Positions 34,171-53,266 of a stretch of DNA of 64,000 bases are shown one piece after another (the first letter of the stretch is position 1; every line of letters starts with the position of its first letter). Origin of the DNA: an uncultured Candidatus Saccharibacteria bacterium (lineage in GTDB: Bacteria; Patescibacteriota; Dojkabacteria; J137). The stretch spans positions 68,190 to 132,189 of the forward strand of contig CAZSKK010000001.1 of NCBI GenBank assembly GCA_964607415.1. The letters run 5' to 3'. Below the pieces are notes generated by a model. It saw only the letters and a list, made by a program, of their open reading frames with translations, ran no database searches and was not told the DNA's origin. The position numbers and the translations under genes are program-made.

Positions 34171-36184
34171 TTTGATTTGATTTAACTTGTGGTTTATTTA
34201 ATTGGTAATACTTGTTTATTGGCTCTCCGTTTTGTGTTTTATCAGTAACCTTTAATGTATTAATTCCTTGAGATCTAAAGTAACCTTCACTTTGTCCCTT
34301 CTGTAAAATCTCGTTTCTACTTTGAGGATTATTTATAAACTTCTGATAGCTTTGAACTGATTTACCTGAACTCATTGATTCATTCTTTGCATACCAGTTT
34401 GTTAAATGTCCCCAATGAGCTTGATTTGATGTATCGAAAGTTTTACCCATGCTTACATTCATTTGTTTATGAGAAATTGATGAATCAAGTAATGAATTTG
34501 TTTGTGTATTTGAAGGTGTAAAGCCACTCAAATTTGCGACACTATTAATATTTGATTGTTGTTCAGTCATTGGAAATCCAAAGCTTCCGCCTAAATTAGA
34601 AGCTGTGAAAGCAGAAGACAATCTGTTTGAATCCTTAACACTAACTTTTGAAATATCTCCAAAGTTAGGAGTATTAGTGAATAAACTTTTAGTAGGGGAA
34701 TCTGGCTTTAGAGAATTAGCATCTAATGGAGTCATGCCTAACTTTCCAAATGCTCCTGATGTTTTCTCTCCATTTTTCATTGCAGTTTTGAATACACCGC
34801 CCTTATCAGCAAAGTTTTTTCCTTGTTCAATTATTCCTTTACCATTACCTCCTAAACCTTGAAGTGGATTTTGACCTGTTATTGCTCGACCAATTCCTTT
34901 AGCACCAAACATTCTTAAAGATCCTGATTTCTCACCTGTTGCCCCTGCAACAATACCTTTTTTTAATAATGAAGCTTGACCAACAGTACCCATAGCAAAC
35001 ATTCCTGCTGCAATTCCACCTCCCATAGTCCAAAGAAATCCCGATATTCTATTTACAATTATTGGAACTGTATTTAAGAAAGAAACAGCACCGAGTCCTA
35101 AAACAATTTTGGCAACTGATCCATTCCCTCCTTTTATAATTTCAATTACAACAGCAAACCCTAACAAGAAAATTGGTTGAACAATTAAAGTTCTTACAAT
35201 TTCTTCAATCCAAGTTCTTAAAAACTGCCCGCCTCCTGGCATTAGTCCAATTACATAAATCACTGGATACAAAATCATATGAAGTAATAAGTGGAAAAAT
35301 CTAACAATGAATTGAAATAATAAAAGAACAAGGAAGCAAAGTAATGTTCCCCAAATGATTGCCTGAGCGAATGGATTAAATCCTCCCGAATCTGGAAAGC
35401 TTAACTTTGAACCATCACTTTGTACTCCCATTGCAGATAAAACTGCTTGAGATAAAAGTGAAGAGTTTCCGCTAATAAGATCTTGAATGATTAATTTATT
35501 AATCGCGTTCATTAGATCTATGGCTTGAACCAAAATATACCTTGTTGCTGCCATTGCTATCACAAAGATCAGAACTTTTTTACCAAGTTGCATCAAGAGT
35601 TCTCGACCTTTGAATGATCCTTCCATAATGATTGCAGCTCCATTCATTACTATGAATAATGGAAGTAGCAACCAAGCTAAGGCATTTGTAAGGTTATAGA
35701 ATTTATCAATTTGAATTGGAACTTCAGAACCGAAGCCATAAATTTCACCATCGTTTCTTCCGATGTTTGGAGTTGAGCCAACGAAGTTATCAAATAGATT
35801 TAAAACTTCTTGAACTAACTTATTTATAGCTTCAACTATGGGATCTAAAATGCTACCTAGTGGGTCAATACCAAATATACCAATGCTTCTTTCTTCTTTT
35901 ACTTTTTCAACATCAAGTTCAGGAACATCCATGTTGTACTTATCAAATACAACTGGAATGTTCGCTGAAGAAACTGTTACAGTTTCAATACTTTGTTCAG
36001 GTTTATTTGAGTTATGAATAATTCCCACGACCTGCGTTAAGAGAATCAAAACGAAAAGACTTGTTGAAAAGATTACTAAATGTTTTAGCTGTCTTTTTTG
36101 AACTTTGTCTGCGTTTTGAACTCTCTCCGCAAGATCGCTGGTTCGCGTACCTATGTTTTGGATTCTTTTAAGTAGCTTAAACAT
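34139..36184 (-). CDS. Polytopic membrane protein, VirB6/TrbL-like
   Basis: At least 6 TM helices in the central part; S/N/Q/G-rich C-terminal tail; 681 aa. Confidence 0.4.
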   Translation of the reverse strand: MFKLLKRIQNIGTRTSDLAERVQNADKVQKRQLKHLVIFSTSLFVLILLTQVVGIIHNSNKPEQSIETVTVSSANIPVVFDKYNMDVPELDVEKVKEERSIGIFGIDPLGSILDPIVEAINKLVQEVLNLFDNFVGSTPNIGRNDGEIYGFGSEVPIQIDKFYNLTNALAWLLLPLFIVMNGAAIIMEGSFKGRELLMQLGKKVLIFVIAMAATRYILVQAIDLMNAINKLIIQDLISGNSSLLSQAVLSAMGVQSDGSKLSFPDSGGFNPFAQAIIWGTLLCFLVLLLFQFIVRFFHLLLHMILYPVIYVIGLMPGGGQFLRTWIEEIVRTLIVQPIFLLGFAVVIEIIKGGNGSVAKIVLGLGAVSFLNTVPIIVNRISGFLWTMGGGIAAGMFAMGTVGQASLLKKGIVAGATGEKSGSLRMFGAKGIGRAITGQNPLQGLGGNGKGIIEQGKNFADKGGVFKTAMKNGEKTSGAFGKLGMTPLDANSLKPDSPTKSLFTNTPNFGDISKVSVKDSNRLSSAFTASNLGGSFGFPMTEQQSNINSVANLSGFTPSNTQTNSLLDSSISHKQMNVSMGKTFDTSNQAHWGHLTNWYAKNESMSSGKSVQSYQKFINNPQSRNEILQKGQSEGYFRSQGINTLKVTDKTQNGEPINKYYQLNKPQVKSNQNARSSSAKVK

Positions 36185-36545
36185 TTGCGATAAATCTTAT
36201 TGCGTCTAAAATTAAATTTGGGTTGAATAAGAAAATCGCTGCAACTACTAAAAGAAAGATATCTCTTATTAAAGTAGTTCTAACCATTGGATCATCCTTC
36301 CTTTCAAGTAAGGTGAAAGCATCTCTTACAATGAAAAGTAATAGAACTGCTGATCCAACTTGAGTCATAATTGAAATTACTCTTTCAACAATTAGATTAA
36401 TTTCGTCAGCAGGACTAACAGCAGCAGCAAATACCTTTCTTGTAAGCATCCAAGTTGTTGTGAAGGATGTAACAAAAAGTACCCACAATCTATTCAGCAA
36501 ATTTTTGTTTTTGAGAATTCTTTTTCTTAAAGTTAATTTATTCAT
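36177..36545 (-). CDS. Small two-TM protein, VirB2/TrbC pilin-like candidate
   Basis: Signal-like N-terminus then two hydrophobic segments; 122 aa; first in the VirB2-B6-B4-like gene order. Confidence 0.3.
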   Translation of the reverse strand: MNKLTLRKRILKNKNLLNRLWVLFVTSFTTTWMLTRKVFAAAVSPADEINLIVERVISIMTQVGSAVLLLFIVRDAFTLLERKDDPMVRTTLIRDIFLLVVAAIFLFNPNLILDAIRFIANV

Positions 36546-36663
36546 CTAGTAATTAATAAAAAATAAAATTATTTGTTTCTTTCTCGTCTTTCTTTCCAGA
36601 TCCCTCGAAGTATCAGGAATGAACAGTAAGAAATGACGAGTGTAAGAGTTATTGAAATCACAA

Positions 36664-39600
36664 TCATTTCTTTCGTTTCTTAAAATTTAAAATCAACATG
36701 GTTACTCCAACTCCGATAAGTGAGATTCCTAAACCAATTGGTATTAGGATTGAGTCTCCTGTGTCAGCAATTACAATGTCTCGGTAAATTCCTGCATTTA
36801 AGAAAGTGATGCATCCACTGGCAGTTACATATCTGATTCCGTCTTCAACATAATCTTCAGGAACTCCATCTTCTCTTGGAGGTAATAGTGCTAAGGTATA
36901 TTCATTTACAGTTGTGAATTCATCAAAGCCATTAGGCATCTCTACAGTTACATGAAGAGGAGTATAGAAAGGTAATCCAGTGTAAACATAATGACCGCTT
37001 TGATCTGTATATAATTCAACTTCATTTTCAGGAAGATATTCTGAAGCAGACCATCTAAGTCTGATTCTTGCATTTTCAATTCCAAATTCCTCTTCCTCAA
37101 AAATTCCGTTCTTATTATTGTCATCCCAAATAAAGCCACCCATACAACAAGCATTTGTTGTAACTGCTACAGCCTCACTTTCAACCGTTTCTACAACTGG
37201 TGAATAAATGATTGCTGAGTTTCTAATCTCTGTATCAGAAGGTGTTGGAATTTCAATTACAACTGTAAAACTCACAGATCCCTCACTTCCTGCTTGAATG
37301 TTTCCCAAATCCCATTGAACTTCATTGTTTTCAGCATCATAAGTTCCTAAAACTTCTGGATTACTTTCACCAAAGGAAACAAATAATGTATGTTCAGGAA
37401 TTGAATCAACTAGAGTAGTGCTTGGTGAAAATCCTGTACCAGTATTTCTGTAAGTCAATGTGTAAGTTATTGGCTGACCTGGTGCTACAACTTCTGGAAG
37501 ATCTTGCACTTTTGTTAGTTCAAGGGTTGGAGTTAGAACATCAGTAGAATCGGTTACAATTTCAGATTCAAATGTAGGAGTAGTTAAACCAACATTATTA
37601 ATTAGTGTTGTAGTTCCTCCTGGCATTATCAAAGGAATTTGCACTTGATAAGTGAAAGTTCTACTTTGACCTGCATTTAAAGTTAATCCTTCATCTACAT
37701 TTGTATCTTCCCAAATAATTGTTCTATTACCATCAAAGTTTCCTTCAGGATCTACACTGTCTTCGGAAAGCACAACGTGTTCTGGCAATAAATCCTCAAT
37801 TCTTAAATTGTATCCGTCCCCAGTCCCTAAGTTTTCAAGAGTAATAGTGTAGGTTAAAAATTCGCCTGGATTAGTTTCAGTAGTATTATCTGTTTTAGAT
37901 AATCTATATCTCGGAGTTAGAACATTTGTAGTTGTAGAGTCACTTAAAGGTGAAGTTTCCTCTGAATCAATGGTTGCAGTATTTACAATTGATCTATCTT
38001 GTTCGGCTGTCCGATTTAGAACTAAATCAAATGTAAAGTTTCCATCTTCACCTTCAGCAAGATCACCAATATTCCAAGTAATGATATTGGTATTAGAATC
38101 ATAACTACCTCCACCTGAAATGTTTTCAACACCTTGAATTTCATTTACTGATGCAAATTGAGTTAGATCATCTGTAAGAATTACATTTGTTGCATCTGTA
38201 TCTCCATTGTTTGCATAATCAATACTAAATGTAAGTCTTCGCTCTGAATCATTGTAATGATCTCCTTGAACTGTGTTTACTTCCACAGATGTTTCATCAC
38301 TATCAGTTACGACTTTTGAAATGTCTAAGACTGCTCTTGGATTTACATTTGTTGTGACAGTTGAAGTATTACTGCCTGGAATATTTGTAGTTACTGAATT
38401 AGGAAACAAGTAATCACCATGAGCTAAATCAAAGATTTGGGCTTGTACTGCAAAGGTTCTTGTTTCTCCGTGTTCTAAAGATGGAATATTCCAAGTTAAT
38501 GTATCTCCATTATCAGATCCACCATCTGCATAATTGATTGAAACAAAGTTTTGATCATAATTATCAGTTACTACAACATCATTTACTCTTCCTCCATTAT
38601 TAGTAACGGAAACATTGTAAGTAATGTTTTCTCTATTTAGAGCTGTGTTATTAGTTACATTTGTTTCATTAGAATCACTAACTGTTTTAGTAGTTTGAAC
38701 ACTAGGTGCTAAATTTACAGTTGCATTAGAAGAAGTGAAATTGTAAGGAATAATACTTACTGAGAATGTAGAAAAGTTTTGACTAGCCCAAGTTCCTTGA
38801 GGTGCAGCCCATCCAGCAGGTGCATTATGGTCATCTCTCCAAATAAAGCCTGGTTGAGCATCATGGCTTAAATCTTGTGAATGGCTTTTAGCTCTTGAAG
38901 TTGATTCAGTATAAGTATTGTTATCATAGATCTGAACATTATTAGTAATGTTTAGAGGATATGAAGTATTCCAATTGTCATAATATGTAATTGTTCTTGT
39001 TTCTCCTGCACTAAATGAGTGTGTTTGATCGTAAGTTGCTCCTGATGGAAGATTGTCTAAAACTCTGATATTCCCGACATTGTAAGTTGAGACATTTCGT
39101 AATGTTAGATCATATCTAATATTTAAGTTTGCTCCTGACCATTCGGGTGTAGCAGAGTATGAAACTTGTTGAATTGGTTGAATAGTGTTGAATGAATACA
39201 CAACTCTTCCACCTGCATTACCATTTGGATCTGCACCAAAGCCTCCTTGATTACCAATTACAACAAGATTACCGCTTCTACATCCTCCAACTGCATCACA
39301 AACAGTAGAATATCCACCACCTGCACCTAATCTTGTAATATCCCCTTCACTTGGATTTGATCGTGAAGTAAATAAATCTACTCTTGGTACATTTACATTA
39401 TGACCAGTTAAGTTCCAAACCCAGTAACCAACTTGTACAGTTGATCCGGGTGGAACTGCTACATGTCTCATATTATCGAATCTATCTCCATAGAATCCAT
39501 TAACAGCAGTAACACCATTTACTGGTGTACCCTGAATTGATCCTGCTCCCCATCCTTGAACTTGACCTCCGTTATATGAAACTCCATTTCCTAAATTAGA

Positions 39601-39798
39601 GTATTGAACTCCAAATGTTCCTCCGAAGGCACAGTAAAATGGATCTCCACCGCTTCCAAAGAAGAAATCGGCAAGAACTACCGATGGTGCAAAAAATGAA
39701 GTAAAGCTATACAATAGCAAGAAAGCCAACACTGGCTTCGGCTTAGGAATGATCTTACCAAGGAGCTTCCTAAGCCTTATTTTTTTGAGTATCCTCAT
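36664..39798 (-). CDS. Large repeat-rich surface adhesin with a C-terminal cell-wall sorting-like signal
   Basis: Signal peptide; many T/N/S-rich repeat (DUF11-like) modules; C-terminal IADTG + hydrophobic stretch + NFKKRKK tail; 1044 aa. Confidence 0.6.
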   Translation of the reverse strand: MRILKKIRLRKLLGKIIPKPKPVLAFLLLYSFTSFFAPSVVLADFFFGSGGDPFYCAFGGTFGVQYSNLGNGVSYNGGQVQGWGAGSIQGTPVNGVTAVNGFYGDRFDNMRHVAVPPGSTVQVGYWVWNLTGHNVNVPRVDLFTSRSNPSEGDITRLGAGGGYSTVCDAVGGCRSGNLVVIGNQGGFGADPNGNAGGRVVYSFNTIQPIQQVSYSATPEWSGANLNIRYDLTLRNVSTYNVGNIRVLDNLPSGATYDQTHSFSAGETRTITYYDNWNTSYPLNITNNVQIYDNNTYTESTSRAKSHSQDLSHDAQPGFIWRDDHNAPAGWAAPQGTWASQNFSTFSVSIIPYNFTSSNATVNLAPSVQTTKTVSDSNETNVTNNTALNRENITYNVSVTNNGGRVNDVVVTDNYDQNFVSINYADGGSDNGDTLTWNIPSLEHGETRTFAVQAQIFDLAHGDYLFPNSVTTNIPGSNTSTVTTNVNPRAVLDISKVVTDSDETSVEVNTVQGDHYNDSERRLTFSIDYANNGDTDATNVILTDDLTQFASVNEIQGVENISGGGSYDSNTNIITWNIGDLAEGEDGNFTFDLVLNRTAEQDRSIVNTATIDSEETSPLSDSTTTNVLTPRYRLSKTDNTTETNPGEFLTYTITLENLGTGDGYNLRIEDLLPEHVVLSEDSVDPEGNFDGNRTIIWEDTNVDEGLTLNAGQSRTFTYQVQIPLIMPGGTTTLINNVGLTTPTFESEIVTDSTDVLTPTLELTKVQDLPEVVAPGQPITYTLTYRNTGTGFSPSTTLVDSIPEHTLFVSFGESNPEVLGTYDAENNEVQWDLGNIQAGSEGSVSFTVVIEIPTPSDTEIRNSAIIYSPVVETVESEAVAVTTNACCMGGFIWDDNNKNGIFEEEEFGIENARIRLRWSASEYLPENEVELYTDQSGHYVYTGLPFYTPLHVTVEMPNGFDEFTTVNEYTLALLPPREDGVPEDYVEDGIRYVTASGCITFLNAGIYRDIVIADTGDSILIPIGLGISLIGVGVTMLILNFKKRKK

Positions 39799-39828
39799 AA
39801 AATAAGGTGATAAAAAATATAATAATTA

Positions 39829-40161
39829 TTAGGTTTTAACCTCTTCTTTTAATTTCACTTTTACTTGTTTAAGTTTTCTATCAATTTGAATATCAAATAT
39901 TCCATGCTTAACTAATTCCACTAATCCTTTTTCTATTTGATATTCAGTTAATCCAGTTGGAGAAATTAATGTTTTAATTCGGATCTCTTCTTCAATACAC
40001 CATCCGTATCTAAGTTCATCTAGTAAAACGATTACATCTGTTTTCAAATTCTTAATTAAAACTGTAAAAAGAAAACAACCAACTTTTAGTTCTTCTTCGG
40101 AAGTTTGATCTAAACATTCAGAAATAAATTGAATAAATCTCTTATATATTTCAGCTTTCAT
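39829..40161 (-). CDS. Hypothetical protein
   Basis: 110 aa ORF. Confidence 0.3.
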   Translation of the reverse strand: MKAEIYKRFIQFISECLDQTSEEELKVGCFLFTVLIKNLKTDVIVLLDELRYGWCIEEEIRIKTLISPTGLTEYQIEKGLVELVKHGIFDIQIDRKLKQVKVKLKEEVKT

Positions 40162-40561
40162 CTGATAAATTAATTAAAATTAAATTCTCAATATTGATAG
40201 TTGTAGACTTATCAATTATTTTCTTTTTATAATTTTTGACTTTCACTCCTTCAGATTGAGCATTTAGAATTAATTTTCTAATTCGTTCTGCAATCTTTTG
40301 TTCTCTACTTGAAAGGTTTTTGATAGCTTCTTGAAAGTCTTCATTGTCTGAAATGATGAAGAAACCATAAGGACCTTTAGTAGTTGAACCTATAGCGTAA
40401 CCTTCATCATTTACAAGCATTTGAACAGCTCTACGAATTTCTCTATCAGTTAAGCTAACCTTTTCAGCAATCTCATCCACTTGAATAGGATTAGATTTGC
40501 CTACATGTTTCTTTATTAACTTGACGATTCTTTGTAGTTGTTTATCACTTAACTTTTGCAT
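40151..40561 (-). CDS. Hypothetical protein
   Basis: 136 aa ORF overlapping its neighbours (operon). Confidence 0.3.
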   Translation of the reverse strand: MQKLSDKQLQRIVKLIKKHVGKSNPIQVDEIAEKVSLTDREIRRAVQMLVNDEGYAIGSTTKGPYGFFIISDNEDFQEAIKNLSSREQKIAERIRKLILNAQSEGVKVKNYKKKIIDKSTTINIENLILINLSDES

Positions 40562-40829
40562 TTCTGTATGTTTTGATTTTTAATTTTTTTCGATAATCAC
40601 CAATACTCTCCTTAGAAATAATGAAGAAAATCATGTCAGGCTTAGTCTTAAGTGCTCTAGCAATTCTTAAAAGAGTTAAACTAGTTGGCTCTGCCTGCCA
40701 ATTCTCAATTCTTCTATATGTCCAAAGAGTGATATCGGCTTTACGAGCAAGAGTCTCTTGTGATATCTTTCTATTCCTCCTTATTGTTTTGAGGTGATTG
40801 ATCACCACTTCATCGGGACTCTCTTTCAT
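40545..40829 (-). CDS. XRE-family helix-turn-helix transcriptional regulator
   Basis: RKISQETLARKADITLWTYRRIENWQAEPTSLTLLRIARAL, a Cro/C1-type HTH. Confidence 0.7.
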   Translation of the reverse strand: MKESPDEVVINHLKTIRRNRKISQETLARKADITLWTYRRIENWQAEPTSLTLLRIARALKTKPDMIFFIISKESIGDYRKKLKIKTYRNAKVK

Positions 40830-41118
40830 ACAGATATATTAAGTGCGTAAGAATTTATTAACGAAGATTTTATAAAAGTGTATTTGATAAATCCTTGTCA
40901 AAAAGTAAGTTGATTGGGCTTTTGCGAATTTTGTACTTTTTGTAAAGGTTAGGACATACTAAGATATACCTTCTCACTTTGTGGATTTATAGTAGGATAA
41001 CCTTACCCTTAGTGGTAAAGGATAGCAGCGTTGATACTTACAAAAACATTCCATTTAAAACTTTTCCAAATCTGCTTCAAATATCAAAATCACCTTATAA
41101 ATTTCTTAATTTATATCT

Positions 41119-41388
41119 ATGACAATATTAGAAGCACGTAAAATTCTTGAATTAAGTGAGGATGAATATTCAGATTCACAAATAGAAGAAATCATTGATG
41201 AAACATTTCGTCTTGCAAAGTTCTTTTTAGATAGATTTATGAAAGGGGATATTATCCCTGATGAAGCTATAAAAGAATTTGAAAAAACAGAGAAATCCAA
41301 ATTACCACTAAAACTTTTTACTGAAATTAGTTATAATTCGGATGAAGACAAATCTAAATTAACACAAGTGGAAAATTCCGACTCTTAA
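41119..41388 (+). CDS. Small acidic hypothetical protein upstream of the recombinase (candidate directionality factor, speculative)
   Basis: 89 aa; followed by a long-stem hairpin gggtacttgtgg ... ccacgagtaccc + T run at about 41406..41460. Confidence 0.25.
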   Translation: MTILEARKILELSEDEYSDSQIEEIIDETFRLAKFFLDRFMKGDIIPDEAIKEFEKTEKSKLPLKLFTEISYNSDEDKSKLTQVENSDS

Positions 41389-41491: not shown

Positions 41492-43114
41492 ATGTTACCA
41501 GAGTTTGAGCCATCAACAGACAAAAACTTAAAGATTCCTAGATACTTGGAAAGGACGGTAGCTTTCTATATTCGTGTCAGTGATCCAAAGCAATTGGAGA
41601 AATTCAGCGTTCCTACACAAATCGCTCAATCAAGAGAATATGCTAAACGAGAAAAAATGCGTGAAGTCGGTATCTTCATAGAAAAGGGACAATCAGCTAA
41701 AACTTCAGATAGAACTGAGCTTCAAAACTTACTTCATTTCATCACAAAAAATAAGAATAAGGTTGATTATGTCTTAGTATATAAGATTGATAGATGGGCA
41801 AGAAATAGCATGGACTATTATGCTCTTAAAACTATACTTCTTAAAAATGGTACAAATTTAATCTCATTAATTGAATCACAAGTAGATGATTCACCTACAG
41901 GAAGGTTTCTTGAAAGCTTGTTTTCTGCTGTTGCTCAATTAGATAATGAAAATAAAGGGATTAGAGTTAGAGAATGTATGCGTAGCAAGGCGTTAGATGG
42001 TCATTACCCTGGTAAACCTTATTATGGATATAAAAATCATCCGAAATCAAAGATTCTAGTTAGAGATTTAGAGTATTACGAACACATAAAAAATGCACTT
42101 ATTGATTTTTCTTTAGGGACTACAATACCTGAATTAGTTGAAAGATTTAGAAGAGCTGGTTTGAGAACTAAAGGATGGAACAAGACACCAAGAAGAGAAT
42201 TTAATACAAAAGATATTTGGAAGATACTTACTAAAAGTAGGTTTTACGCTGGTTATTTTGACTGGGGAGAAGTTAAGGATCAATTCGGTAAACACGAGAC
42301 TATGATAACTTGGAAGCAACATACAAAGATACAATCTTTACTCTATCAGAAATCACAATGTGTTTCTCAAGAGCTTATCCAAGATGAACCTTATTTTATA
42401 TTTAATTTTAACCTTACTGGCAAGGAAGGATTTGTGCATTGCAATATCTGCAATAGTAGACTACGTTCTTGCTTCTCCAAAGGTAAAATGGGTACTAGAT
42501 ACCCTTATTATTATTGTTATAACAAAAATTGCACTATGGATAAAAAATCAATCAAAAAACATGAATTAGAACAATTATTCGAAGTATTATTGCAAAAAAT
42601 TACACCTTCAGAAAAGTTCGCTAACCTTTTTAAACATTCAGTAGTTGAACTATGGGAGAAAGAACATGCTATTTATGATGAAAGACATAAACATGCAGAG
42701 AAAAAGCTAGATGATCTAAAAGATAAGAAAGATTACATTAACAAGATGCACAGAACTGGCAGATATAGTGATGAAGAATACGATGAAGAAATAGCCCTAT
42801 GGAAAAATGAAATGGCAGTTGTTCGTCTGGAAATAAATGAAAACTTAATTGATCGAAATGAACTAGAAGTTTTATTGGTTCAAGCAGAACTATTTATAAC
42901 TAGGCTCGAACCCTTGTATCGTTCCTTCAGTACAGAGAATAAGAGACGTTTTTCAACATTAATCTTCCCAAAAGGTGTACGATACGAAAATGGCAAGATC
43001 GAACCCGTGGAAAAGTCCACGCTATTTGAATATCTGGGTGATTTACAGGCTAAAAATGTTGATGTAAATCAAATGGTGACCTCACGGGGAATCGAACCCC
43101 GATTGCCAGGATGA
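41492..43114 (+). CDS. Large serine recombinase (integrase)
   Basis: Catalytic region AFYIRVSDPKQ ... DRWARN; recombinase and Cys-rich zinc-ribbon (C...C ... C..C) domains, C-terminal coiled coil; 540 aa; last 41 nt overlap the tRNA-Glu gene. Confidence 0.85.
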   Translation: MLPEFEPSTDKNLKIPRYLERTVAFYIRVSDPKQLEKFSVPTQIAQSREYAKREKMREVGIFIEKGQSAKTSDRTELQNLLHFITKNKNKVDYVLVYKIDRWARNSMDYYALKTILLKNGTNLISLIESQVDDSPTGRFLESLFSAVAQLDNENKGIRVRECMRSKALDGHYPGKPYYGYKNHPKSKILVRDLEYYEHIKNALIDFSLGTTIPELVERFRRAGLRTKGWNKTPRREFNTKDIWKILTKSRFYAGYFDWGEVKDQFGKHETMITWKQHTKIQSLLYQKSQCVSQELIQDEPYFIFNFNLTGKEGFVHCNICNSRLRSCFSKGKMGTRYPYYYCYNKNCTMDKKSIKKHELEQLFEVLLQKITPSEKFANLFKHSVVELWEKEHAIYDERHKHAEKKLDDLKDKKDYINKMHRTGRYSDEEYDEEIALWKNEMAVVRLEINENLIDRNELEVLLVQAELFITRLEPLYRSFSTENKRRFSTLIFPKGVRYENGKIEPVEKSTLFEYLGDLQAKNVDVNQMVTSRGIEPRLPG

Positions 43115-43148
43115 AAACCTGGTGTCCTAACCGTTAGACGATAAGGCC
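43074..43148 (-). tRNA. tRNA-Glu (anticodon UUC)
   Basis: Folded by hand: acceptor GGCCTTA / TGAGGTC (two G-U pairs); D arm GTCT ... GGAC; anticodon stem CCAGG / CCTGG with loop TTTTCAT (UUC); 4-nt variable loop; T arm CGGGG-TTCGATT-CCCCG; discriminator A + CCA. Confidence 0.85.
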
Positions 43149-43539
43149 CAAAAACTTGCCTTGAATTGCAAGTTTTTGCAGTTACTTCAACAAAGTTGAA
43201 GTCATTTGCGATAACTTACCAATTTAGCAAATAATTAGTTTTAATTTAAAAGAACAGCTTATTCTGCTGTACCTGAAAATCATTTATAAAAGTACATGCT
43301 TTAAAGATTGTTAAAGCCTATATATAACAATGTTCAAGATATCTTTAAAGCACTGTAATTATAAACAATTTAATTTGTTTTGTGAATTAGATTTTTTTAT
43401 AAAATAGTTTCTGGATTTATCAAAACTTTGTAAACAAAAAATGAACTTGTTCCACTTCTTTTTTAATAACAGCAATCAACCCTCATCTGATATAATTTTT
43501 CAATAGAAAAGCCAGAGTACTCATTACACTATATTTACT

Positions 43540-44199
43540 ATGAGTGATTCATTTGATAAAAACCCACCGGAAAATAGATATTTGAGAGATCTAGGGGATT
43601 ATACCTCTATGTTGAAGCACTACCTAAAAGGATATGCTCCAGGTTTTACTTTAGTTGATAAAACTGGCACTTATCATAAAAAATATTTTGGATACAATCC
43701 CGATAAATATTACGATGAACCTAGTGATTCTGAAAATCAATTAGAATCTATATTCAAAAATGCAAAAACAATACTGGATTTAGGAAGCGGCCAAGGAGAT
43801 TCAGTTAAAAGTGTATTAAAATTTACGCCAAACGTTGCAAGTGTACATACAGTTGATAGTGGATTTACTTCCATACAAATACCTGCTCAACAACATTCCC
43901 ATTTCCAGTCTGACATAAGTGCATTTTTGCAAGATATGCCTACTCTAAATACAGTCTATGATATTGTAATAATGAGAGGAGTTCCTACCCATCATTTGGA
44001 TGCAGCGAATTACGAATCACTATTTCAAAATATTTCAGCCAAAGGTATAGTTTTGGAATTTGGCGATACTTTACTGAATGCTAATGAAATGATTAGAGTT
44101 GGATTTCGGGAACTAATGTCTGTAGAAACAATTGCACCTCGTGGTGATAGACTGTATGATAGAATTTGGCAAAAAACAGACAGCAATCTTACAAGCTGA
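43540..44199 (+). CDS. SAM-dependent methyltransferase-like protein
   Basis: KTILDLGSGQGDSVK (motif I-like). Confidence 0.4.
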   Translation: MSDSFDKNPPENRYLRDLGDYTSMLKHYLKGYAPGFTLVDKTGTYHKKYFGYNPDKYYDEPSDSENQLESIFKNAKTILDLGSGQGDSVKSVLKFTPNVASVHTVDSGFTSIQIPAQQHSHFQSDISAFLQDMPTLNTVYDIVIMRGVPTHHLDAANYESLFQNISAKGIVLEFGDTLLNANEMIRVGFRELMSVETIAPRGDRLYDRIWQKTDSNLTS

Positions 44200-44201
44200 A
44201 G

Positions 44202-44660
44202 CTACTCTCTTTCAATCTTCTTCGCCTCCCTATTCACATTTTCTGTAAATCTAGTTAAAAAATCCACAATAACTTCCAACTCTTTATCCGAATAACTATC
44301 AATTAAATCTTTGTGCGCTTTTTGAATTCCAGTAACTAAATTTTTAGAATCTTTTGCATACTGCTCGTTTATCTCAATCAAAGTTCCTCGCCTATCATTT
44401 GGATTTGATTTACGCTTTATAATATTCTTTTTTTCTAATCTATCTAACATTGTGGTTGTTGAACCAGATGTAAGTCCAGTAAATTTTGCAAGCTCAGTTG
44501 GTGTAGAAACTCCCTTTACCCCAAGCAAAGTTAAACAAACTGATTCAGTTAAATTTAAATCAAACTTTTTTGCCATTACATTTCTAAATAAAATGGAACT
44601 GATGCCATTATCACGCGCTGCCATTAACACTTTTGTTTTTAAATCTGGATTTTTATTCAT
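44202..44660 (-). CDS. MarR-family transcriptional regulator
   Basis: Winged-helix LTESVCLTLLGVKGVSTPTELAKFTGLTSGSTTTMLDRLEKKNIIKRKSNPNDRRGTLIEI. Confidence 0.75.
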   Translation of the reverse strand: MNKNPDLKTKVLMAARDNGISSILFRNVMAKKFDLNLTESVCLTLLGVKGVSTPTELAKFTGLTSGSTTTMLDRLEKKNIIKRKSNPNDRRGTLIEINEQYAKDSKNLVTGIQKAHKDLIDSYSDKELEVIVDFLTRFTENVNREAKKIERE

Positions 44661-44759
44661 AAAATTGTTGACACTAGCTTGGAAATAAAGTATCTTGATT
44701 ATAAAGCAATTTTAAACAGGAATCAATCTACTTCGTAATTTATTTTTTATTATATATAT

Positions 44760-45203
44760 ATGAATTCAGAAAAAAACACAACAGGCACTTTTTCCGATTT
44801 TGAAAAAGAAGCAATGAGAAATAGAGCCAAAGAACTTAAAGAAGAAGCAAAAGCCCTTAAAAATCGTGATGCTGGTTTAAAAATGATTATGACCGCAATT
44901 GATGCAATGACAGGAAATGATAAAGAAATGGCTAAAAAAATTCACGATATTGTAACTAAAGCTGCTCCAGAATTAATGCCAAAAACCTGGTACGGAATGC
45001 CAGCATATGCCGATAAAAATGGTAAAGCAGTAGTATTTTTTCAACCTGCAGATAAATTTAAAGCACGCTACTCTACACTAGGTTTTAATGATTCAGCAAA
45101 ATTGGACGAAGGAAATATGTGGCCTTCATCTTTTGCACTTATAAAGTTAACAAGTGAGGAAGAAATAAGAATTGCAGATTTGGTAAAAAAAGCTGTTGGA
45201 TAA
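44760..45203 (+). CDS. Hypothetical protein (DUF1801/YdhG-like, tentative)
   Basis: 147 aa; WYGMPAY segment. Confidence 0.3.
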   Translation: MNSEKNTTGTFSDFEKEAMRNRAKELKEEAKALKNRDAGLKMIMTAIDAMTGNDKEMAKKIHDIVTKAAPELMPKTWYGMPAYADKNGKAVVFFQPADKFKARYSTLGFNDSAKLDEGNMWPSSFALIKLTSEEEIRIADLVKKAVG

Positions 45204-45316
45204 TTTCAAATTTGTTTTGAAATTCACTTGAACTCCGTCATTCAAAATGCAATAATATCTGTACACATGAAAACGCTTACCCTGAACACAATTATTGGTT
45301 TCTGCTAAGGATTTAG

Positions 45317-45343
45317 CCCCGCATAATAGCGGGGTTTTTTTTT
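45317..45343 (+). terminator. Rho-independent terminator
   Basis: ccccgc-ataata-gcgggg followed by a T9 run. Confidence 0.75.
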
Positions 45344-45353
45344 ACTCTTTTTT

Positions 45354-46802
45354 ATGACACAAACAAACTCATCAAAAAATTATAGAAGAGTAAACTTGAA
45401 GCTAAGCCTTAGTACTTCAAAAAAGCTAGAGGAAGTAGCTATAAAAAATGGTGTTAGCAAATCTAAACTCATAAGACAATGGATTTTGAGTGCTAAACAT
45501 GATAGTTATCCTGCTTGGGGTAATACTTCAAAGATGTCCAAGACTTACAATTTAAGAATGTCTGTTACTGAAATTAAAAGAATTGAAGAAATTGCTATTT
45601 ATAATGATATTACTTTTAGTGAAGGTTTAAGACGTGTTATTGACTCTCAACTTTTCCTTTCTAAAAAACCAGTTGAAATAAAAAATTTTTATCACGAAAG
45701 TTCCGAAGACTCGCTTAAAGTTCTATGGATGAGGGGTAGGCTGAATGAGCTAAGTGAGCTTTTAGGTAATGATTTAAACAAACTTAGCATAGAAGAACTT
45801 GTACTTTTTGCAAGAAGTCATAAGGAACTTGGAAACTTAAACCAGGCAGAGAATGCAGCAAAATTGCTAAAACATCGCTCATCCAAAATCAATGATATGT
45901 CATACAGAATTAAATTATCAACCGCAGTAAAACTTATTGAAATTGATATTTATTTATACAAACGAGACATTTTAAAAGTTAAATTTTTATTAGAACAGCT
46001 AAGTGTATTAAGACCAGAAATTGTGGACAGAGGAATGGCCGGACTTTATTACTGTCAGCTAGGTGAAGCTTCTGCATTTTCGGAGGATTACTTGACAGCA
46101 ATAAATTATTACGAGAAAGGTTTAGACTACCTTGATGTTTGTAACCACCCTACGCTTATGATCAGAATTTATGTAAGACTAGCAAGGATTTATGAATATT
46201 TATTGGATTATAAATCTGCCCAGAAATACTTTAATAAGGTTTATTCAATCAACAAAACTATTGATAATCAATTGTATTGGGGATGGTTTTATAATGATAA
46301 GGCGATTTTTGATTTCTTAAAAGGTGATTTAAAAGAAGTTGAAGAATCTTTTAAAAAAAGTCTGAATTATTATTCAGAAATAGGCTGTTATAGAGGCGAG
46401 TGTTATGTACATGATCATTTTGCAAGAACAATGTTGTACCAGAACAAACCAGAAGAAGCTTATAGGCTGTTTATGAAAGCAATTGACTTGGAGAAGAACT
46501 TTAGAAATCCAGATGCATTTAGCTACATAAAACTATGTAAATGGTTTATAGAATCCAGAGACAAGTTTGAAGAATCTATTGATAATATTCAAAAAATGAG
46601 AGAGAAAACTACTTCAGGTTTTGAACCAAGCTTTGGCGATTATTTTTTTAATGCTACAAAATTTGTAAATGGAAAAAACGAAGAAACTATAAAAGAAGGT
46701 AAAGAAGGTTTAGAAAGACTTTCTGACATATCTGAAAATAAATTGGTTGCATTTGCTTCAAAAAACGTTATTTCTACAGGTCTACTTCAGGCGATAAGAT
46801 AG
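45354..46802 (+). CDS. Hypothetical regulator-like protein: two N-terminal ribbon-helix-helix-like repeats plus C-terminal TPR-like helical repeats
   Basis: Repeated VSKSKLIRQWIL / FSEGLRRVIDSQL modules; alpha-helical C-terminal repeats with Y/L/A periodicity. Confidence 0.3.
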   Translation: MTQTNSSKNYRRVNLKLSLSTSKKLEEVAIKNGVSKSKLIRQWILSAKHDSYPAWGNTSKMSKTYNLRMSVTEIKRIEEIAIYNDITFSEGLRRVIDSQLFLSKKPVEIKNFYHESSEDSLKVLWMRGRLNELSELLGNDLNKLSIEELVLFARSHKELGNLNQAENAAKLLKHRSSKINDMSYRIKLSTAVKLIEIDIYLYKRDILKVKFLLEQLSVLRPEIVDRGMAGLYYCQLGEASAFSEDYLTAINYYEKGLDYLDVCNHPTLMIRIYVRLARIYEYLLDYKSAQKYFNKVYSINKTIDNQLYWGWFYNDKAIFDFLKGDLKEVEESFKKSLNYYSEIGCYRGECYVHDHFARTMLYQNKPEEAYRLFMKAIDLEKNFRNPDAFSYIKLCKWFIESRDKFEESIDNIQKMREKTTSGFEPSFGDYFFNATKFVNGKNEETIKEGKEGLERLSDISENKLVAFASKNVISTGLLQAIR

Positions 46803-46849
46803 TTAGCAGTTAGCTGTTAGCACTTAGCGTTTAGCGTATAGCGAATAGC
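46801..46849. repeat. Seven tandem heptamer repeats (nnTTAGC x5, nnATAGC x2)
   Basis: agttagc agttagc tgttagc acttagc gtttagc gtatagc gaatagc, starting at the stop codon of the upstream gene. Confidence 0.7.
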
Positions 46850-46949
46850 TAATAAAAAATAGTAAAAGGTAACTAGTAAAAAGTGATTACCCTAGGTCGA
46901 AATAGAGAAATAGCAACATAGTATATTTTTATGTTAAAATTCACTCTAT

Positions 46950-47807
46950 ATGGATTATATATCTATAGATTCAAATAGCAGACATAATTTGTATGCAGAT
47001 CAAATAAATCTGTACAAACACCTAGAGGGTAACATAGCCAGACAAATTACACATATTAGTGGAGTTTTAGATCTCATTCAAATAACTGGTGATGTTTCGC
47101 CAACGTTTCAAACTTTTCCTGAGTGGTGGAGTGAACAAGTTGTAAATATGCTAAAAATTTTAATGAAGGTGGAGGAAGATGTGATTCACTTCATGGAATC
47201 AAATAAGACTGAACAAACTATTCTTGGTTTATCGATGATAAGTGCAAGAATTCTTAATAAGCTTACTCCTAGTGAGCTTTCCAGTATTAAAATTTGTACA
47301 AATCAAATTATTGCTATTGTTAAAAGTGAGCTGGAAATAGCAATGAGCGATGAAGATTTAGAAATCAAAGCTAAGCAAATTTCTAGCTTAAGAGGCGGTG
47401 GTCAGCCTATCGAAGACTATATGAAAGCTAACTTTCCTTTCCTAGTTTCAGCTCCAAAGGAAAGAGAAGCAATGATCCTTACAGGAATGACAAAAGAAGA
47501 GTTGGAAGATATTACAGGACTAGATGATGAACAAATAGAGGTCTTTATCCACGAGATAGAGGTATTGGAAGGGGTGACTAAAAACGAATATGAGGAAGCT
47601 ATGAAAACAAGATTGGATGATTTGCTTTATTTAACAGGTTTGTCCATTCAAGAGCTAGCTCTAGAAGCAAAATTAAAGTTAGAATCTTTGAGAATTCTGA
47701 TGGATCAGCCATTAGATTTATTTTCCAAGCTGTCAAGTTTAGTTCTTTCACTTCAACTTTCGTTAGTTGCGTTAAGTTTTGAAGAGAGATTAAAATCAAA
47801 AAATTAG
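46950..47807 (+). CDS. Hypothetical acidic protein
   Basis: 285 aa ORF. Confidence 0.3.
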   Translation: MDYISIDSNSRHNLYADQINLYKHLEGNIARQITHISGVLDLIQITGDVSPTFQTFPEWWSEQVVNMLKILMKVEEDVIHFMESNKTEQTILGLSMISARILNKLTPSELSSIKICTNQIIAIVKSELEIAMSDEDLEIKAKQISSLRGGGQPIEDYMKANFPFLVSAPKEREAMILTGMTKEELEDITGLDDEQIEVFIHEIEVLEGVTKNEYEEAMKTRLDDLLYLTGLSIQELALEAKLKLESLRILMDQPLDLFSKLSSLVLSLQLSLVALSFEERLKSKN

Positions 47808-47843
47808 ATATAATTTATTACCTAAACTTTTAAAAACTTCTAA

Positions 47844-48584
47844 ATGAATCTTCAAGACAAAGTTGTTTTAATCACCGGTTCTTCAAGCGGAATAGGTAAA
47901 GCTACTGCATTAAGATTTGCAAAAGAAGGCGCCAAAGTTGTTGTTAATTATAAAACTAATAAAGATGGAGGTGAGAAAGCCATTAAAGAAATCGAAGCTA
48001 TGGGTGCAACTGCTCTACTTGTTCAGGCAGACGTATCCAATCCTACTGAAGTAAAAAGATTATTTGAAGAAGTTGTTAAAAAATTTGGTACTGTTGATAT
48101 TCTTATAAATAATGCAGCAATTCCAAGTGATCAAGTTCCATATTTTGAAGCTTCACATGATGATATTATCCAGCTTGTAAATACGGATTTAGTTGGCCCA
48201 ATGATTTGTGCTCAAGAAGCAATAAAGTTAATGAAAAAACAAGGATATGGCAAGATTTTTAATACAAGTTCGATTAGAGGATGGGAACATGGAGGACGTT
48301 CAGTGGTTTACGCAGCTTCAAAGGCAGGTCTAAATAGCTTTACAAGGACTTTAGCAAAACATGTTGCACCAGAAATTCAAGTTAATGCAGTTGCTCCTGG
48401 TTTTGTAAAAACTAGAAATTATGATGCAATGTCTGAAGAGCAAATTAAAACTTTTATAGATCAGACAATTTTAAAAAGATGGGTAACTGAAGATGAAATT
48501 GCAGATGCTTTTTTATTCTTGGCAAAAAACGATGCAATGACAGGTCAGGTTTTGTATGTAGATGCTGGATTTACACTAAAATAA
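47844..48584 (+). CDS. Short-chain dehydrogenase/reductase (FabG-like)
   Basis: VVLITGSSSGIGKA (TGxxxGxG); NNAA; catalytic YAASKAGL. Confidence 0.85.
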   Translation: MNLQDKVVLITGSSSGIGKATALRFAKEGAKVVVNYKTNKDGGEKAIKEIEAMGATALLVQADVSNPTEVKRLFEEVVKKFGTVDILINNAAIPSDQVPYFEASHDDIIQLVNTDLVGPMICAQEAIKLMKKQGYGKIFNTSSIRGWEHGGRSVVYAASKAGLNSFTRTLAKHVAPEIQVNAVAPGFVKTRNYDAMSEEQIKTFIDQTILKRWVTEDEIADAFLFLAKNDAMTGQVLYVDAGFTLK

Positions 48585-48590
48585 TTTTAA

Positions 48591-49217
48591 TTGAGTATGA
48601 CAAACTTTCTAACGGAACAAGAACAAAATACAATTAATTTCTATAATGCTCAAAGTCAAAAATGGGCAGATGGGCATAACACTGAAAGGTTTTGGGGTGA
48701 AAGCGTTGATGCTTTTCAGGAGCTTTTAGCAGACGGGAAAGTTATAGAAATTGGTTGTGGTGGTGGACGTGATGCAAAAGAGCTTGTAGCTATGGGATAT
48801 GATTATACAGGAACAGATATTTCAGAAGGGTTTCTTGAGGTTGCAAGGCAAGCTTTGCCGGATCAAAATTTTTTCCAAGCTAGTGTTTATGATTTGAGTA
48901 ATCTTGTTGAAGACGCATTATTTGATGGGTTTTGGTGCTCTGCAGTTTTGCTTCATATTCCTAAAGATCGTATAGATGAAGCTTTAAATTCTATTAAAAA
49001 AGTTGTACGTGAAGGTGGAATAGGTTTTATCTCAATAAAAGAAGGAAGCGACGATGTTATAAAGAAAGAAGGTGATTTAGAAAGAAATTTCTATATGTAT
49101 CAAGATGACGAATTTAGAGAAGTATTGGCGCGCAATTCAATCGAAGTTATGAACTTTAGATATATGCCAATGAACGAACGCACAAAGTGGCTAATTTATG
49201 TTGTTAGGATAGCTTAA
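48591..49217 (+). CDS. Class I SAM-dependent methyltransferase
   Basis: VIEIGCGGGRDAKEL motif I; acidic GTDIS. Confidence 0.7.
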   Translation: MSMTNFLTEQEQNTINFYNAQSQKWADGHNTERFWGESVDAFQELLADGKVIEIGCGGGRDAKELVAMGYDYTGTDISEGFLEVARQALPDQNFFQASVYDLSNLVEDALFDGFWCSAVLLHIPKDRIDEALNSIKKVVREGGIGFISIKEGSDDVIKKEGDLERNFYMYQDDEFREVLARNSIEVMNFRYMPMNERTKWLIYVVRIA

Positions 49218-49219
49218 AT

Positions 49220-49714
49220 ATGTTCATTCAAGTTGTTCCAGAAAATTTTACTCCACCAAATCTTGTAAAAGATAATTACATTGCAAGAAAACTTATGGCA
49301 TCTGATGCTGAATTAGACTTTGCTGCTGTTATGTCTAGCATTGATATTATCAAGGAAACTCGAGGCGGAAGTTGGCCATCGGAAAACTTAACTTTGGAAG
49401 AAGACAGAATAGATTTAAGCTGGCATCAACGAGAGTTTGAAAACAATTCTTCATTTGCATACACAGTTTTAAATAAAGATGAAACTAAGTGTTTAGGATG
49501 TTTTTATTTATACCCAATGGGTTTTAGAACTGATCTAGGAAATAATAATTCCAAATATGATATTGATGTATCGTGGTGGGTAACTCAGGAAATGTATAAT
49601 CAGGGCTTTTACGACCAATTAGGTGGAGATATAAAAGAATGGTTGGAAAAAGAGTGGCCGTTTAAGAAAGTTTACTTTTCAAATAAAATCTTACCGGAAG
49701 GGATCTTCAACTGA
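49220..49714 (+). CDS. Hypothetical protein (possibly GNAT-like)
   Basis: 164 aa ORF; weak. Confidence 0.2.
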   Translation: MFIQVVPENFTPPNLVKDNYIARKLMASDAELDFAAVMSSIDIIKETRGGSWPSENLTLEEDRIDLSWHQREFENNSSFAYTVLNKDETKCLGCFYLYPMGFRTDLGNNNSKYDIDVSWWVTQEMYNQGFYDQLGGDIKEWLEKEWPFKKVYFSNKILPEGIFN

Positions 49715-49942
49715 TTTGTATTGCAGCACAATGTGATGCAAACTTTCAAATGTTACTATTAACTCACCTCACCCGTCTTTCCCCGATAAATCGGGATCAA
49801 GACTACCCTCTCCTTCTGGAGAGGGAACTAGCACAAAACCCTTCTCCAGAAGGATGAGAATACATATTATGTATTCGAATGCAGCTATTAGCTCCACTCG
49901 ACAGCACAATGTGCTGTCTCAGGATGAGGTGAAAAATTAGTA
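49715..49942. repeat. Highly structured intergenic element with at least 5 GC-rich hairpins and terminal repeats
   Basis: Hairpins cccgat-aa-atcggg, ccctctcc-ttct-ggagaggg, ccttctcc / agaagg, tacata-t-tatgta and gacagcac-aat-gtgctgtc; direct repeat cagcacaatgtg at 49724 and 49902; outer inverted repeat cacctcac / gatgaggtg. Confidence 0.45.
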
Positions 49943-50299
49943 ATGGAAAAATCATTATATATAAATAAAAAACTTAATGCTTACGCACGAAAATTTCGTA
50001 AAGATTCAACTTTAGGTGAAGCAATTCTCTGGTCTAAATTGAAAAGTAGAAGTTTCCTTGGTCTTAAATTTCGGCGCCAAGTTCCAGTTAGCAACTACAT
50101 CCTCGACTTCTACTGCCCTAAACTTAACCTTGCAATTGAAATCGATGGTTCTACGCACGATGAAAATAAATATGATTATGATGTTGAAAGACAAAAAGAA
50201 ATTGAATCATTAGGGATTACAGTTTTAAGGTTTACAGAACATGAGGTTAAAACTAAACTTGATGATGTTTTACAAACGATTGAGCAAATAATAAAATGA
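49943..50299 (+). CDS. DUF559 endonuclease-domain protein (restriction-endonuclease-like fold)
   Basis: YILDFYCPKLNLAIEIDGSTHD, the characteristic DUF559 core. Confidence 0.7.
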   Translation: MEKSLYINKKLNAYARKFRKDSTLGEAILWSKLKSRSFLGLKFRRQVPVSNYILDFYCPKLNLAIEIDGSTHDENKYDYDVERQKEIESLGITVLRFTEHEVKTKLDDVLQTIEQIIK

Positions 50300-50955: not shown

Positions 50956-51053
50956 GCAATTTTCAAGTCAAAGAATTTACAAAAAGCACACTGTACTTTT
51001 GAGTGTAGCTAATAAATTAAACTAAAGTGCATAATATGCATTCTCACCCTCAA

Positions 51054-51114
51054 AGGAGGAAATCCAATGATTTTCCCCTCTTGAGAGGGGAAGAAAAAGC
51101 ATGTTATGCTTTTT
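51054..51114 (+). promoter_or_regulatory. Leader-like arrangement: strong SD + 5-codon mini-ORF (MIFPS) + GC hairpin + terminator-like hairpin, upstream of the DUF2461 gene
   Basis: aggagg N7 ATG ATT TTC CCC TCT TGA; cccctc-ttga-gagggg overlapping the stop codon; aaaagcat-gtt-atgctttt then T. Confidence 0.3.
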
Positions 51115-51156
51115 CAGGGGAGTGACATTCAATCAGAATTTTAATCTAATTTCCTT

Positions 51157-51822: not shown

Positions 51823-51889
51823 CTATCGGTAATCAGTTTTCTGTAACCTGATTAACTCGCAAACCCACTAACACGCAAACTTTTTATAT

Positions 51890-52255: not shown

Positions 52256-52260
52256 TTAAA
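52237..52260. repeat. 24-nt perfect palindrome cctccccttt-gatt-aaaggggagg (copy 1). The stop codon of the upstream gene lies in the loop, and the right arm supplies the SD of the downstream gene
   Basis: 10-bp stem; second copy at 53989..54012 with loop aatt. Confidence 0.7.
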
Positions 52261-52270
52261 GGGGAGGAAG

Positions 52271-52807: not shown

Positions 52808-52862
52808 TAGCAAGTAATTGGAAATAGAAATTAGTAAATACTGAAAAGTAAGAAGAAATTAG

Positions 52863-53189: not shown

Positions 53190-53266
53190 AACTTATTTTT
53201 TAACCGAAGAGATTTTACCAAATTTTGGCAGCGTGTAAAGAGTTTAGCAAAAATTTTGGATATGTA

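Follow-up and report, generated by a model that had tools for sequence, protein, structure and literature searches.

The 64,000-nt stretch analysed here (the window; contig CAZSKK010000001.1 of an uncultured Candidatus Saccharibacteria bacterium, positions counted from its first letter) carries a large serine recombinase (LSR) gene that ends inside a tRNA-Glu gene on the opposite strand. Here, we describe this locus and the probable insertion of a ~53.7-kb mobile element at the tRNA's 3' end, with attachment (att) sites drawn from public contigs of the same species. The features around the junction are listed with their support in brackets.

41119..41388, plus strand: acidic 89-aa open reading frame (ORF) directly upstream of the LSR gene, candidate accessory or directionality factor (ORF; tblastn)
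41492..43114, plus strand: LSR, 540 aa when integrated (ORF; Pfam; AlphaFold 2 [AF2] model; Foldseek)
43052..43076, plus strand: putative P arm of attP/attR within the LSR coding sequence (codons ..KNVDVNQMV), GTTGAT at 43058..43063 (sequence)
43074..43148, minus strand: tRNA-Glu(UUC), host gene intact after integration (ARAGORN, Rfam; body identical in empty-site contigs L082 and L086)
43074..43076, minus strand: encoded CCA end of the tRNA, contributed by the element through its P arm, AAA in the empty site (alignment of window and empty site; CCA enrichment in the clade)
43077..43081, no strand assigned: common core TGACC, antisense of the discriminator and the last four acceptor-stem bases (junction comparison)
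43082..43114, plus strand: host-derived ORF end SRGIEPRLPG (10 codons) plus stop, putative B' arm (identical in the empty site)
43149..64000, no strand assigned: host chromosome right of the insertion, with methyltransferase, MarR, DUF1801, TPR and other genes (contiguous with the tRNA in L082, 99.97%)

The tRNA-Glu(ttc) at 43074..43148 (minus strand) is the only tRNA that ARAGORN finds in the window. The Rfam tRNA model RF00005 matches it at full length (43077..43148) with 60.9 bits against a gathering score of 29, so the objection that it might be a pseudogene fails; the tRNA with its CCA that a first-pass annotation, made from the letters alone, had folded by hand is thus confirmed by both a tRNA finder and a covariance model. 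The CCA is encoded (TGG on the plus strand, 43074..43076). The recombinase ORF overlaps the tRNA by 41 nt (43074..43114), and its C-terminus is, as that annotation had also seen, encoded by antisense tRNA: the stop codon TGA (43112..43114) is antisense to tRNA nucleotides 35 to 37 (the last two anticodon bases and A37), and 43082..43114 is antisense to the acceptor strand, T arm, variable region and anticodon stem, with the T loop read as ATCGAAC at 43091..43097. No second copy of the 3' part of the tRNA was found anywhere in the window, in agreement with the earlier report of no duplicated fragment.

The product of 41492..43114 is a large serine recombinase by its domains, fold and core size, as first annotated. 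It contains FYIRVSDPKQ, with the catalytic Ser30 within YIRVS, and KIDRWARNS, and ends in ...NQMVTSRGIEPRLPG (in a longer rendering, ...VNQMVTSRGIEPRLPG). Pfam reports Resolvase (PF00239, 8.6e-28, residues 23 to 171) and, slightly below its cut-off of 25.3, Zn_ribbon_recom (PF13408, E 1e-4, 23 bits); the Recombinase domain PF07508 is unreported for this protein. Of 21 close relatives, all have Resolvase, 19 have Recombinase and 18 have the zinc ribbon. S30, R101 and R104 are invariant in an 82-sequence alignment, R28 is nearly so, and the zinc-ribbon cysteines C317, C320, C342 and C347 are nearly invariant. The AF2 model (mean predicted local distance difference test score [pLDDT], 91.7) comprises resolvase, recombinase and zinc-ribbon domains and a coiled coil of long helices (residues 374 to 448). 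Its best PDB matches in Foldseek are full-length LSR-DNA complexes: 9dxd (E 7.6e-18), Bxb1 9iu2, PhiC31 9rah and LI integrase 4kis; with 9dxd, 9iu2 and 4kis, the alignment takes in the entire length of the model. The best NCBIfam match is CcrB, at 84 bits against a cut-off of 900 (CcrC, 29 bits against 900), and identity as a Ccr cassette recombinase was ruled out on these scores. The upstream 89-aa ORF has no Pfam or NCBIfam match; its position is conserved in a related element (L001 9639..9872, 49% identity by tblastn).

Public contigs of the same species were located via the methyltransferase gene of the right flank (43540..44199). Three of them (L081, L083 and L084) reproduce the window arrangement. 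Two others, L082 (33 kb, from SRR7051045) and the shorter L086, carry an empty site: from 43071 rightwards they match the window at 99.97 to 100% identity (L082, 99.97%), and left of the tRNA they have other host genes (a 211-aa protein, NUDIX, APH, PemK and HemN). The 211-aa, APH and HemN genes of this left flank lie on the same 584,792-bp contig as the window LSR. Window and empty site diverge exactly at 43076/43077. The tRNA body is identical on both, and ARAGORN gives a 72-nt tRNA without encoded CCA in L082 and L086 and a 75-nt tRNA in the window. A chimeric tRNA, in which two G-U pairs of the acceptor stem would mark an element-borne 3' half, was considered and ruled out by this identical tRNA at the empty site. 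The left flank of L082 recurs in L094, L194 and L098, where it is followed by TGACC and then by non-tRNA sequence, with a CYTH-domain gene 85 nt further. Alignment with DNA lacking the element, which the first-pass annotation had proposed, thereby defined attB (set of L082 and L086), attR (window, L081 and L084) and attL (set of L094 and L194, the same sequence in L098), written with the core set off by hyphens, and from these the presumed attP.

attB: ..GAGAAGAAGAAATTT-TGACC-TCACGGGGAATCGAACCCC.. (in full, GAAGAAATTTTGACCTCACGGGGAATC)
attR: ..GTTGATGTAAATCAAATGG-TGACC-TCACGGGG..
attL: ..GAAGAAATTT-TGACC-CTACAGGTCTCAGCATCGAACTC..
attP, as deduced: GTAAATCAAATGGTGACCCTACAGGTCTCAGC

TGACC is the sole block of identity common to attB, attL, attR and the deduced attP. 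The tRNA is therefore at the right end of an integrated element, as the first-pass annotation held. Its implied corollary, an element-borne tRNA 3' half with a displaced copy elsewhere, falls, as attB, attL and attR share just the five bases; for the same reason the tRNA body is host DNA throughout, the element adding only a trailer that starts with CCA (43074..43076), and no duplication is expected. Judged from the junctions, so tiny a core is a serine-recombinase signature, unlike that of a tyrosine integrase. As expected of an integrative and conjugative element, attL and attR are precise, and the same species offers an empty site to match them.

The left end lies outside the window. Contig L105 was joined to L094 over 8,053 identical bases, both join the left end of the window at 100%, and the attL core falls at the window equivalent of about -10,661; with attL ~10.66 kb left of position 1, the att-bounded insert is ~53.7 kb. 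By coordinate mapping, a 61-kb contig (SRR29850206_3285) covers window coordinates ~24257 to ~-36887, including the attL position. The non-coding stretches that the first-pass annotation had offered as left junctions (12541..12880 and 14751..15379) have no TGACC, P'-like arm, Rfam family or stable RNA fold and are discarded. No TGACC, P'-like arm or tRNA remnant was found at 11 to 16 kb, and no P'-like arm anywhere in the window. RNA folding of 14780..15260 yielded z-scores of -0.03 and +0.15, and a repeat search of 14700..15400 returned short repeats only. The partial tRNA-Glu copy suspected at 12.5 to 15.4 kb has no real counterpart in the window; a 14/15 match to the anticodon stem-loop at 15212..15226 is inverted, has an E value of 0.79 and no TGACC near it, and was taken as chance.

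With a probability of roughly 0.8, we hold that the LSR inserted the ~53.7-kb element at the very 3' terminus of the tRNA-Glu(UUC) gene of the host, with a site geometry as follows. As TGACC is the only identity common to attB, attL and attR, strand exchange is placed inside these 5 bp (the discriminator and four acceptor-stem bases). The junctions show the host tRNA body kept intact, the 3' trailer alone swapped for one that begins with an encoded CCA, and no sequence duplicated. The B' half-site would be the tRNA acceptor strand and T arm, and the zinc-ribbon domain probably uses the T-loop motif ATCGAAC as its distal motif, which lies 5 bp further out in P'. On the other side, the P half-site would be the last ~25 bp of the coding sequence of the recombinase itself, so the ORF would cross the crossover point: on the excised circle it would run into the P' arm and give 563 aa, compared with 540 aa when integrated.

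The motif offsets are consistent with this geometry. CATCGAAC lies 16 to 23 bp from the middle of TGACC in P', and ATCGAAC lies 12 to 18 bp from it in B'. For LI integrase, the zinc-ribbon motif occupies bp 16 to 24 of the attP half-site versus bp 11 to 19 of the attB half-site (PMC3783163), and the P'/B' offset may reflect the same shift of ~5 bp. A distant relative without a tRNA beside its LSR gene (L060) ends in TGG TGACC CTAC-N12-CGAACTC; its 7-mer has the same offset as in P' of the window element, and this end may be read as attP-like. Our guess for the crossover centre is GA at 43078..43079, the best centre of symmetry (at 37.5), which is not significant alone.

Presence or absence of the element is polymorphic across Sequence Read Archive runs: SRR7051045 has the empty form only and SRR29850206 the occupied form only. 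Several contig ends lie precisely 30 nt off the branch point at TGACC (L086 and L194 end at GGGGATTGTC...TGACC, L096 begins at the core, and L092 ends 30 nt into the tRNA). If the assemblies are Logan k=31 unitigs, as we presume, occupied and empty forms would coexist in several runs. The public contigs thus indicate recent mobility. No second attB/attL/attR triad was obtained for the related loci L001 and L003, whose flanking proteins each occur on a single contig.

The overlap of recombinase and tRNA is a trait of a clade. The ~20 closest homologues of the LSR are 40 to 54% identical to it, and nearly all share the type of terminal peptide (for example, MVTSRGIEPRLPG, LVTLRGIEPRFTD, MVTPRRIELRLQN and VTPRGIEPRLSG). 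A strict T-arm peptide pattern is present in 47 of the 120 best matches; by eye, most of the top ~80 read the T arm, with substitutions or in another frame, and weaker, generic LSR matches do not. Relatives scanned at one genome per species gave 80 loci, from Patescibacteria (Dojkabacteria, Saccharibacteria, Paceibacteria, etc.), Verrucomicrobiota, Acidobacteriota, Gastranaerophilales, a Planctomycetia metagenome-assembled genome (MAG) and others. The recombinase ORF ends within a minus-strand tRNA in 63 of the 80 loci, by exactly 41 nt in 38 and by 39 nt in 6 more; tRNA targeting, first annotated as uncommon for LSRs, is therefore standard in a fairly large clade. The tRNAs hit are tRNA-Glu(ttc) (29 loci), Glu(ctc) (16), Lys(ctt) (4), Arg(cct) (3) and a few Leu, Met, Ser, Ala, Val and Asn tRNAs. 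With a near-universal tRNA feature as half of attB, the clade could pass from one tRNA species or phylum to another.

The same loci support a crossover at the discriminator, as the LSR-adjacent tRNAs are enriched in encoded CCA (55 of 63, versus 28 of 61 other tRNAs of these loci; Fisher p = 1e-6) and a tRNA-Glu paralogue in L012, 98.6% identical with the identity starting at the discriminator, has no CCA. Where the other tRNAs of a locus all lack CCA (13 loci), the LSR-adjacent tRNA has it in 12. Full-length relatives were absent from annotated phage and plasmid collections. The IMG/VR viral contigs contained a single clade member, L109, which lies at the end of a contig; generic recombinases made up the 79 remaining loci.

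Several relatives have features of their own. The Gastranaerophilales loci L061, L063, L064, L068, L077 and L079 carry a hairpin, AAGACACCTTTAAGGTGTCTT, in the last recombinase codons, ~30 nt upstream of the tRNA 3' end (e.g., L068 10342..10381); it varies across loci, stays self-complementary and, on the tRNA strand, looks like a terminator supplied by the element. In L068, the attL-like sequence is duplicated in tandem (12..27 and 189..208, ~177 nt apart), and T-arm sequence (GAATCGCTGT) resumes ~53 nt past the repeat, as if the T loop held an insertion. A VirB4 homologue (31% identity) in the Dojkabacteria locus L002 (6420..8081) lies across the tRNA from the recombinase; this may be a further element, or a tandem arrangement at one tRNA. 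The recombinase in the Verrucomicrobiae locus L016 ends in a 30-nt tRNA 3' fragment with no 5' half (~11450..11542), made up of CCA, acceptor strand and complete T arm; it could be a decayed attR or another type of site.

Several points weigh against insertion by the LSR with the geometry given above. The central dinucleotide is placed by a symmetry guess only, the dyad symmetry of attP and attB, tested without gaps, does not exceed that of shuffles, and the P and B arms are weak, with no clear motif in the B arm. A scan of 63 family loci for a P' motif (core + N12-16 + [AT][TC]CGAA) gave 2 matches upstream of the recombinase and 1 downstream, with no enrichment. Neither an attP junction nor a circular form was found; the predicted 563-aa attP-form protein is absent from the protein collection by exact look-up; and no recombination directionality factor was identified, the ORF at 41119..41388 being a candidate only. 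The distal ~25 kb of the insert reads like host genes of an ordinary kind, and nothing corresponds to it in related elements. Finally, four distant clade members (L039, L068, L027 and L021) have attL/attR repeats of 15 to 20 nt that reach the T loop, which may stem from mimicry of the tRNA by P' or from a different crossover, in the T loop.

These tRNA 3'-end repeats, and the recombinase stop within the anticodon loop, would suit an integration in tyrosine-integrase style, with an element-borne tRNA 3' half, a crossover in the anticodon or T loop and the displaced host half at the other end. We regard it as very improbable at the window locus, where the attB/attL/attR triad contradicts it: the empty site has an identical tRNA body, attL leaves tRNA sequence right after TGACC, and the window holds no second tRNA fragment. 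Still less credible is that the tRNA is cargo of the element and not a host gene. Mobile elements often carry tRNAs and this one abuts the integrase gene, but the same tRNA and right flank occur in contigs without the element, and the empty site refutes the idea. More serious, if unlikely, is a mobile unit confined to the ~29-kb conjugative module (~14.2 to 43.1 kb), with the distal 25 kb native or an older, decayed island. The TGACC and P'-like sequence by the 211-aa gene would then be an old scar or pseudo-site, and the L082 form would have arisen by deletion between scar and attR. The left 25 kb is indeed host-like and without homologues in related elements, which do have the conjugation backbone, and several public contigs end between 14162 and 15184. 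This shorter unit, however, has no TGACC, P'-like arm or tRNA remnant at 11 to 16 kb to start from; at -10.66 kb the P' arm carries the motif at the offset seen in L060; all contigs with the boundary gene CYTH180 show the same context, no other being found; and the endpoints of the supposed L082 deletion coincide exactly with two TGACC cores. An att-bounded insert of ~53.7 kb remains the preferred reading.

A separate question is whether the overlap does anything. The tRNA-encoded residues 528 to 540 are coil in the AF2 model (pLDDT 53 to 65), and the tails of the attP-like forms L060, L016, L053 and L070 differ in length and sequence. Since it is predicted to be disordered and varies in this way, the tail is most likely a tolerated by-product of an attP that spans the stop region, and not a functional peptide. 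The alternative is that the 563- versus 540-aa C-terminus, or convergent tRNA transcription, reports the integration state and so controls stability, expression or directionality of the recombinase. It would draw on the ORF that crosses the crossover point in the window element, on the frame across the tRNA, conserved in most of the clade, and on the lack of any minus-strand terminator-like site between the tRNA end and 42504. Given the disordered tail, its variability in attP-like forms and the clade members that use another tRNA frame or stop earlier, we consider such a function doubtful.

The window LSR resembles the phage LSRs (LI/A118 Int, Bxb1, PhiC31 and TP901-1) in domain order and fold, in att sites that are short, have a tiny core in common and leave the target unduplicated and, as far as the motifs can be placed, in a distal half-site motif that attP carries 5 bp further out than attB does (PMC3783163). 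It differs in sequence (identity of at most 28%, in the N-terminal two-thirds only), in targeting a tRNA 3' end where theirs is a protein-coding gene, and in a crossover that would fall inside its own ORF. With islands of tyrosine integrases (P4-like; Islander class) it shares the landing at a tRNA 3' end, the functional tRNA and the integrase gene beside it. The enzyme family is unrelated, however: no tyrosine recombinase or phage-integrase domain was found in the window ORFs scanned, and in place of a direct tRNA repeat of 15 to 70 bp, attL keeps TGACC only. The CcrAB and CcrC recombinases of SCCmec are LSRs that insert at the very 3' end of rlmH, which stays active. The window LSR likewise spares the conserved housekeeping gene at whose 3' end it lands, but here the target is an RNA gene and the recombinase gene is terminal, overlapping the att site. 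In SSV and in the integration-dependent immunity of mycobacteriophages, crossover within a coding sequence changes the encoded protein on integration; those systems use tyrosine recombinases, the SSV int gene is split, and the mycobacteriophage repressor loses a degradation tag. The window element, unlike these, would swap no more than the short and probably disordered tail of its serine recombinase.

We found no characterised relative of the window LSR and, in literature covered incompletely, no account of tRNA 3' ends as targets of serine integrases or of tRNA genes overlapped by them; the word tRNA is absent from a large LSR survey (PMC10083194). The natural targets of serine integrases are catalogued nearly all as protein-coding genes, and a tRNA 3' end would be a new target class. 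It is a tentative and rather improbable extension that these enzymes are an undescribed clade in which the acceptor/T-arm end of a tRNA is half of attB, crossover falls in the coding sequence of the enzyme itself and two isoforms sense the integration state, the window LSR being the first member dissected. Such a clade would be spread in Patescibacteria, Verrucomicrobiota, Acidobacteriota, Melainabacteria and others, and convergent tRNA transcription might add to the sensor. Docking at a tRNA without damage suggests a route by which elements could switch tRNA species and host phylum. Serine integrases are workhorses of site-specific genome engineering. Natural polymorphism defines attB and, by deduction, attP of the window LSR to the base, and the clade may provide ready-made landing pads in uncultured small-genome bacteria, which are very hard to manipulate.

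Of the 585-kb contig, ~54 kb is bounded by recombination sites, including a ribonucleotide reductase and housekeeping-like genes. The LSR-proximal ~29 kb of the ~53.7-kb insert is a conjugative/restriction-modification module. The first-pass annotation had noted conjugation, single-stranded DNA-binding protein (SSB), restriction-modification and RepA_N genes on this side; all were recovered except RepA_N, which domain scans did not detect. The contents of the window left of the LSR are as follows, with module genes listed under the module.

1..14208, no strand assigned: host-like genes inside the att-bounded insert, continuing ~10.66 kb left to attL (Pfam; L105/L094 walk)
14209..41388, no strand assigned: conjugative and restriction-modification module, left limit approximate (Pfam; NCBIfam; TraC-like by precomputed annotation; L001 backbone)
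14388..14750: SSB (Pfam/NCBIfam)
18194..19249: C5 methylase (Pfam/NCBIfam)
19310..22579: MmeI-like enzyme, 1089 aa, single-chain restriction-modification (Pfam/NCBIfam)
23930..24835: Replic_Relax (4.9e-15)
25115..27748: coupling-protein-like ATPase (weak: TrwB_AAD_bind 20.5 bits, TraD 35 bits)
27755..28420: SSB (Pfam/NCBIfam)
28445..29356: HTH_36 protein (Pfam/NCBIfam)
29654..30706: M23 peptidase (Pfam/NCBIfam)
31559..33415: VirB4-like ATPase (Pfam TraG P-loop 1.7e-17; NCBIfam CD1110 family 276 bits versus cut-off 325)
33415..34170: TraC-like protein (precomputed annotation)
36664..39798: DUF11 adhesin, a 1044-aa DUF11/SdrD_B surface protein, 66% identical in L001
40545..40829: HTH_3 protein (Pfam/NCBIfam)

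The set of a VirB4-like ATPase, Replic_Relax, a coupling-protein-like ATPase, an M23 hydrolase, SSB and a surface adhesin is like that of the VirB4/relaxase integrative and conjugative elements of Firmicutes and Mollicutes. Unlike those, the module scores under the NCBIfam cut-offs of their VirB4 families (CD1110, 276 versus 325; Mbov_0397, 298 versus 590), and it differs in its uncultured small-genome host, integrase type and target. The backbone also lies upstream of a 54%-identical LSR in L001, a MAG labelled Saccharibacteria, at 58 to 85% identity. The VirB4-like ATPase (31559..33415) is 85% identical to L001 180..2018, with the recombinases at just 54%, which points to modules exchanged between elements or to a recent transfer from one lineage to another.

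The genes at 1..14208 encode CYTH, GreA, a kinase, a class II ribonucleotide reductase, queuosine salvage, a histidine kinase with response regulator, UbiA and polyprenyl synthase, and the whole block is absent from the insertion site in L082. The distal ~25 kb also has a CCA-transferase-like protein, a ROK kinase, NUDIX proteins and two-component systems. In several runs, public contigs break off at 14162, 14179, 14208, 15008 and 15184, which hints at structural variation at the boundary between host-like block and conjugative module. By eye, GCGAAGC-type motifs recur in 14950..15180, with no Rfam match and no stable fold.

Inside the insert, ~1 to 2.4 kb left of position 1 (L105 11606..13030), a 474-aa protein weakly resembles CCA-adding enzyme/poly(A) polymerase (56 bits versus a cut-off of 290); the empty-site form of the host tRNA-Glu has no encoded CCA. 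On the host chromosome just past the right edge of the window (L100 123..2390) lie a sortase and another DUF11-type protein.

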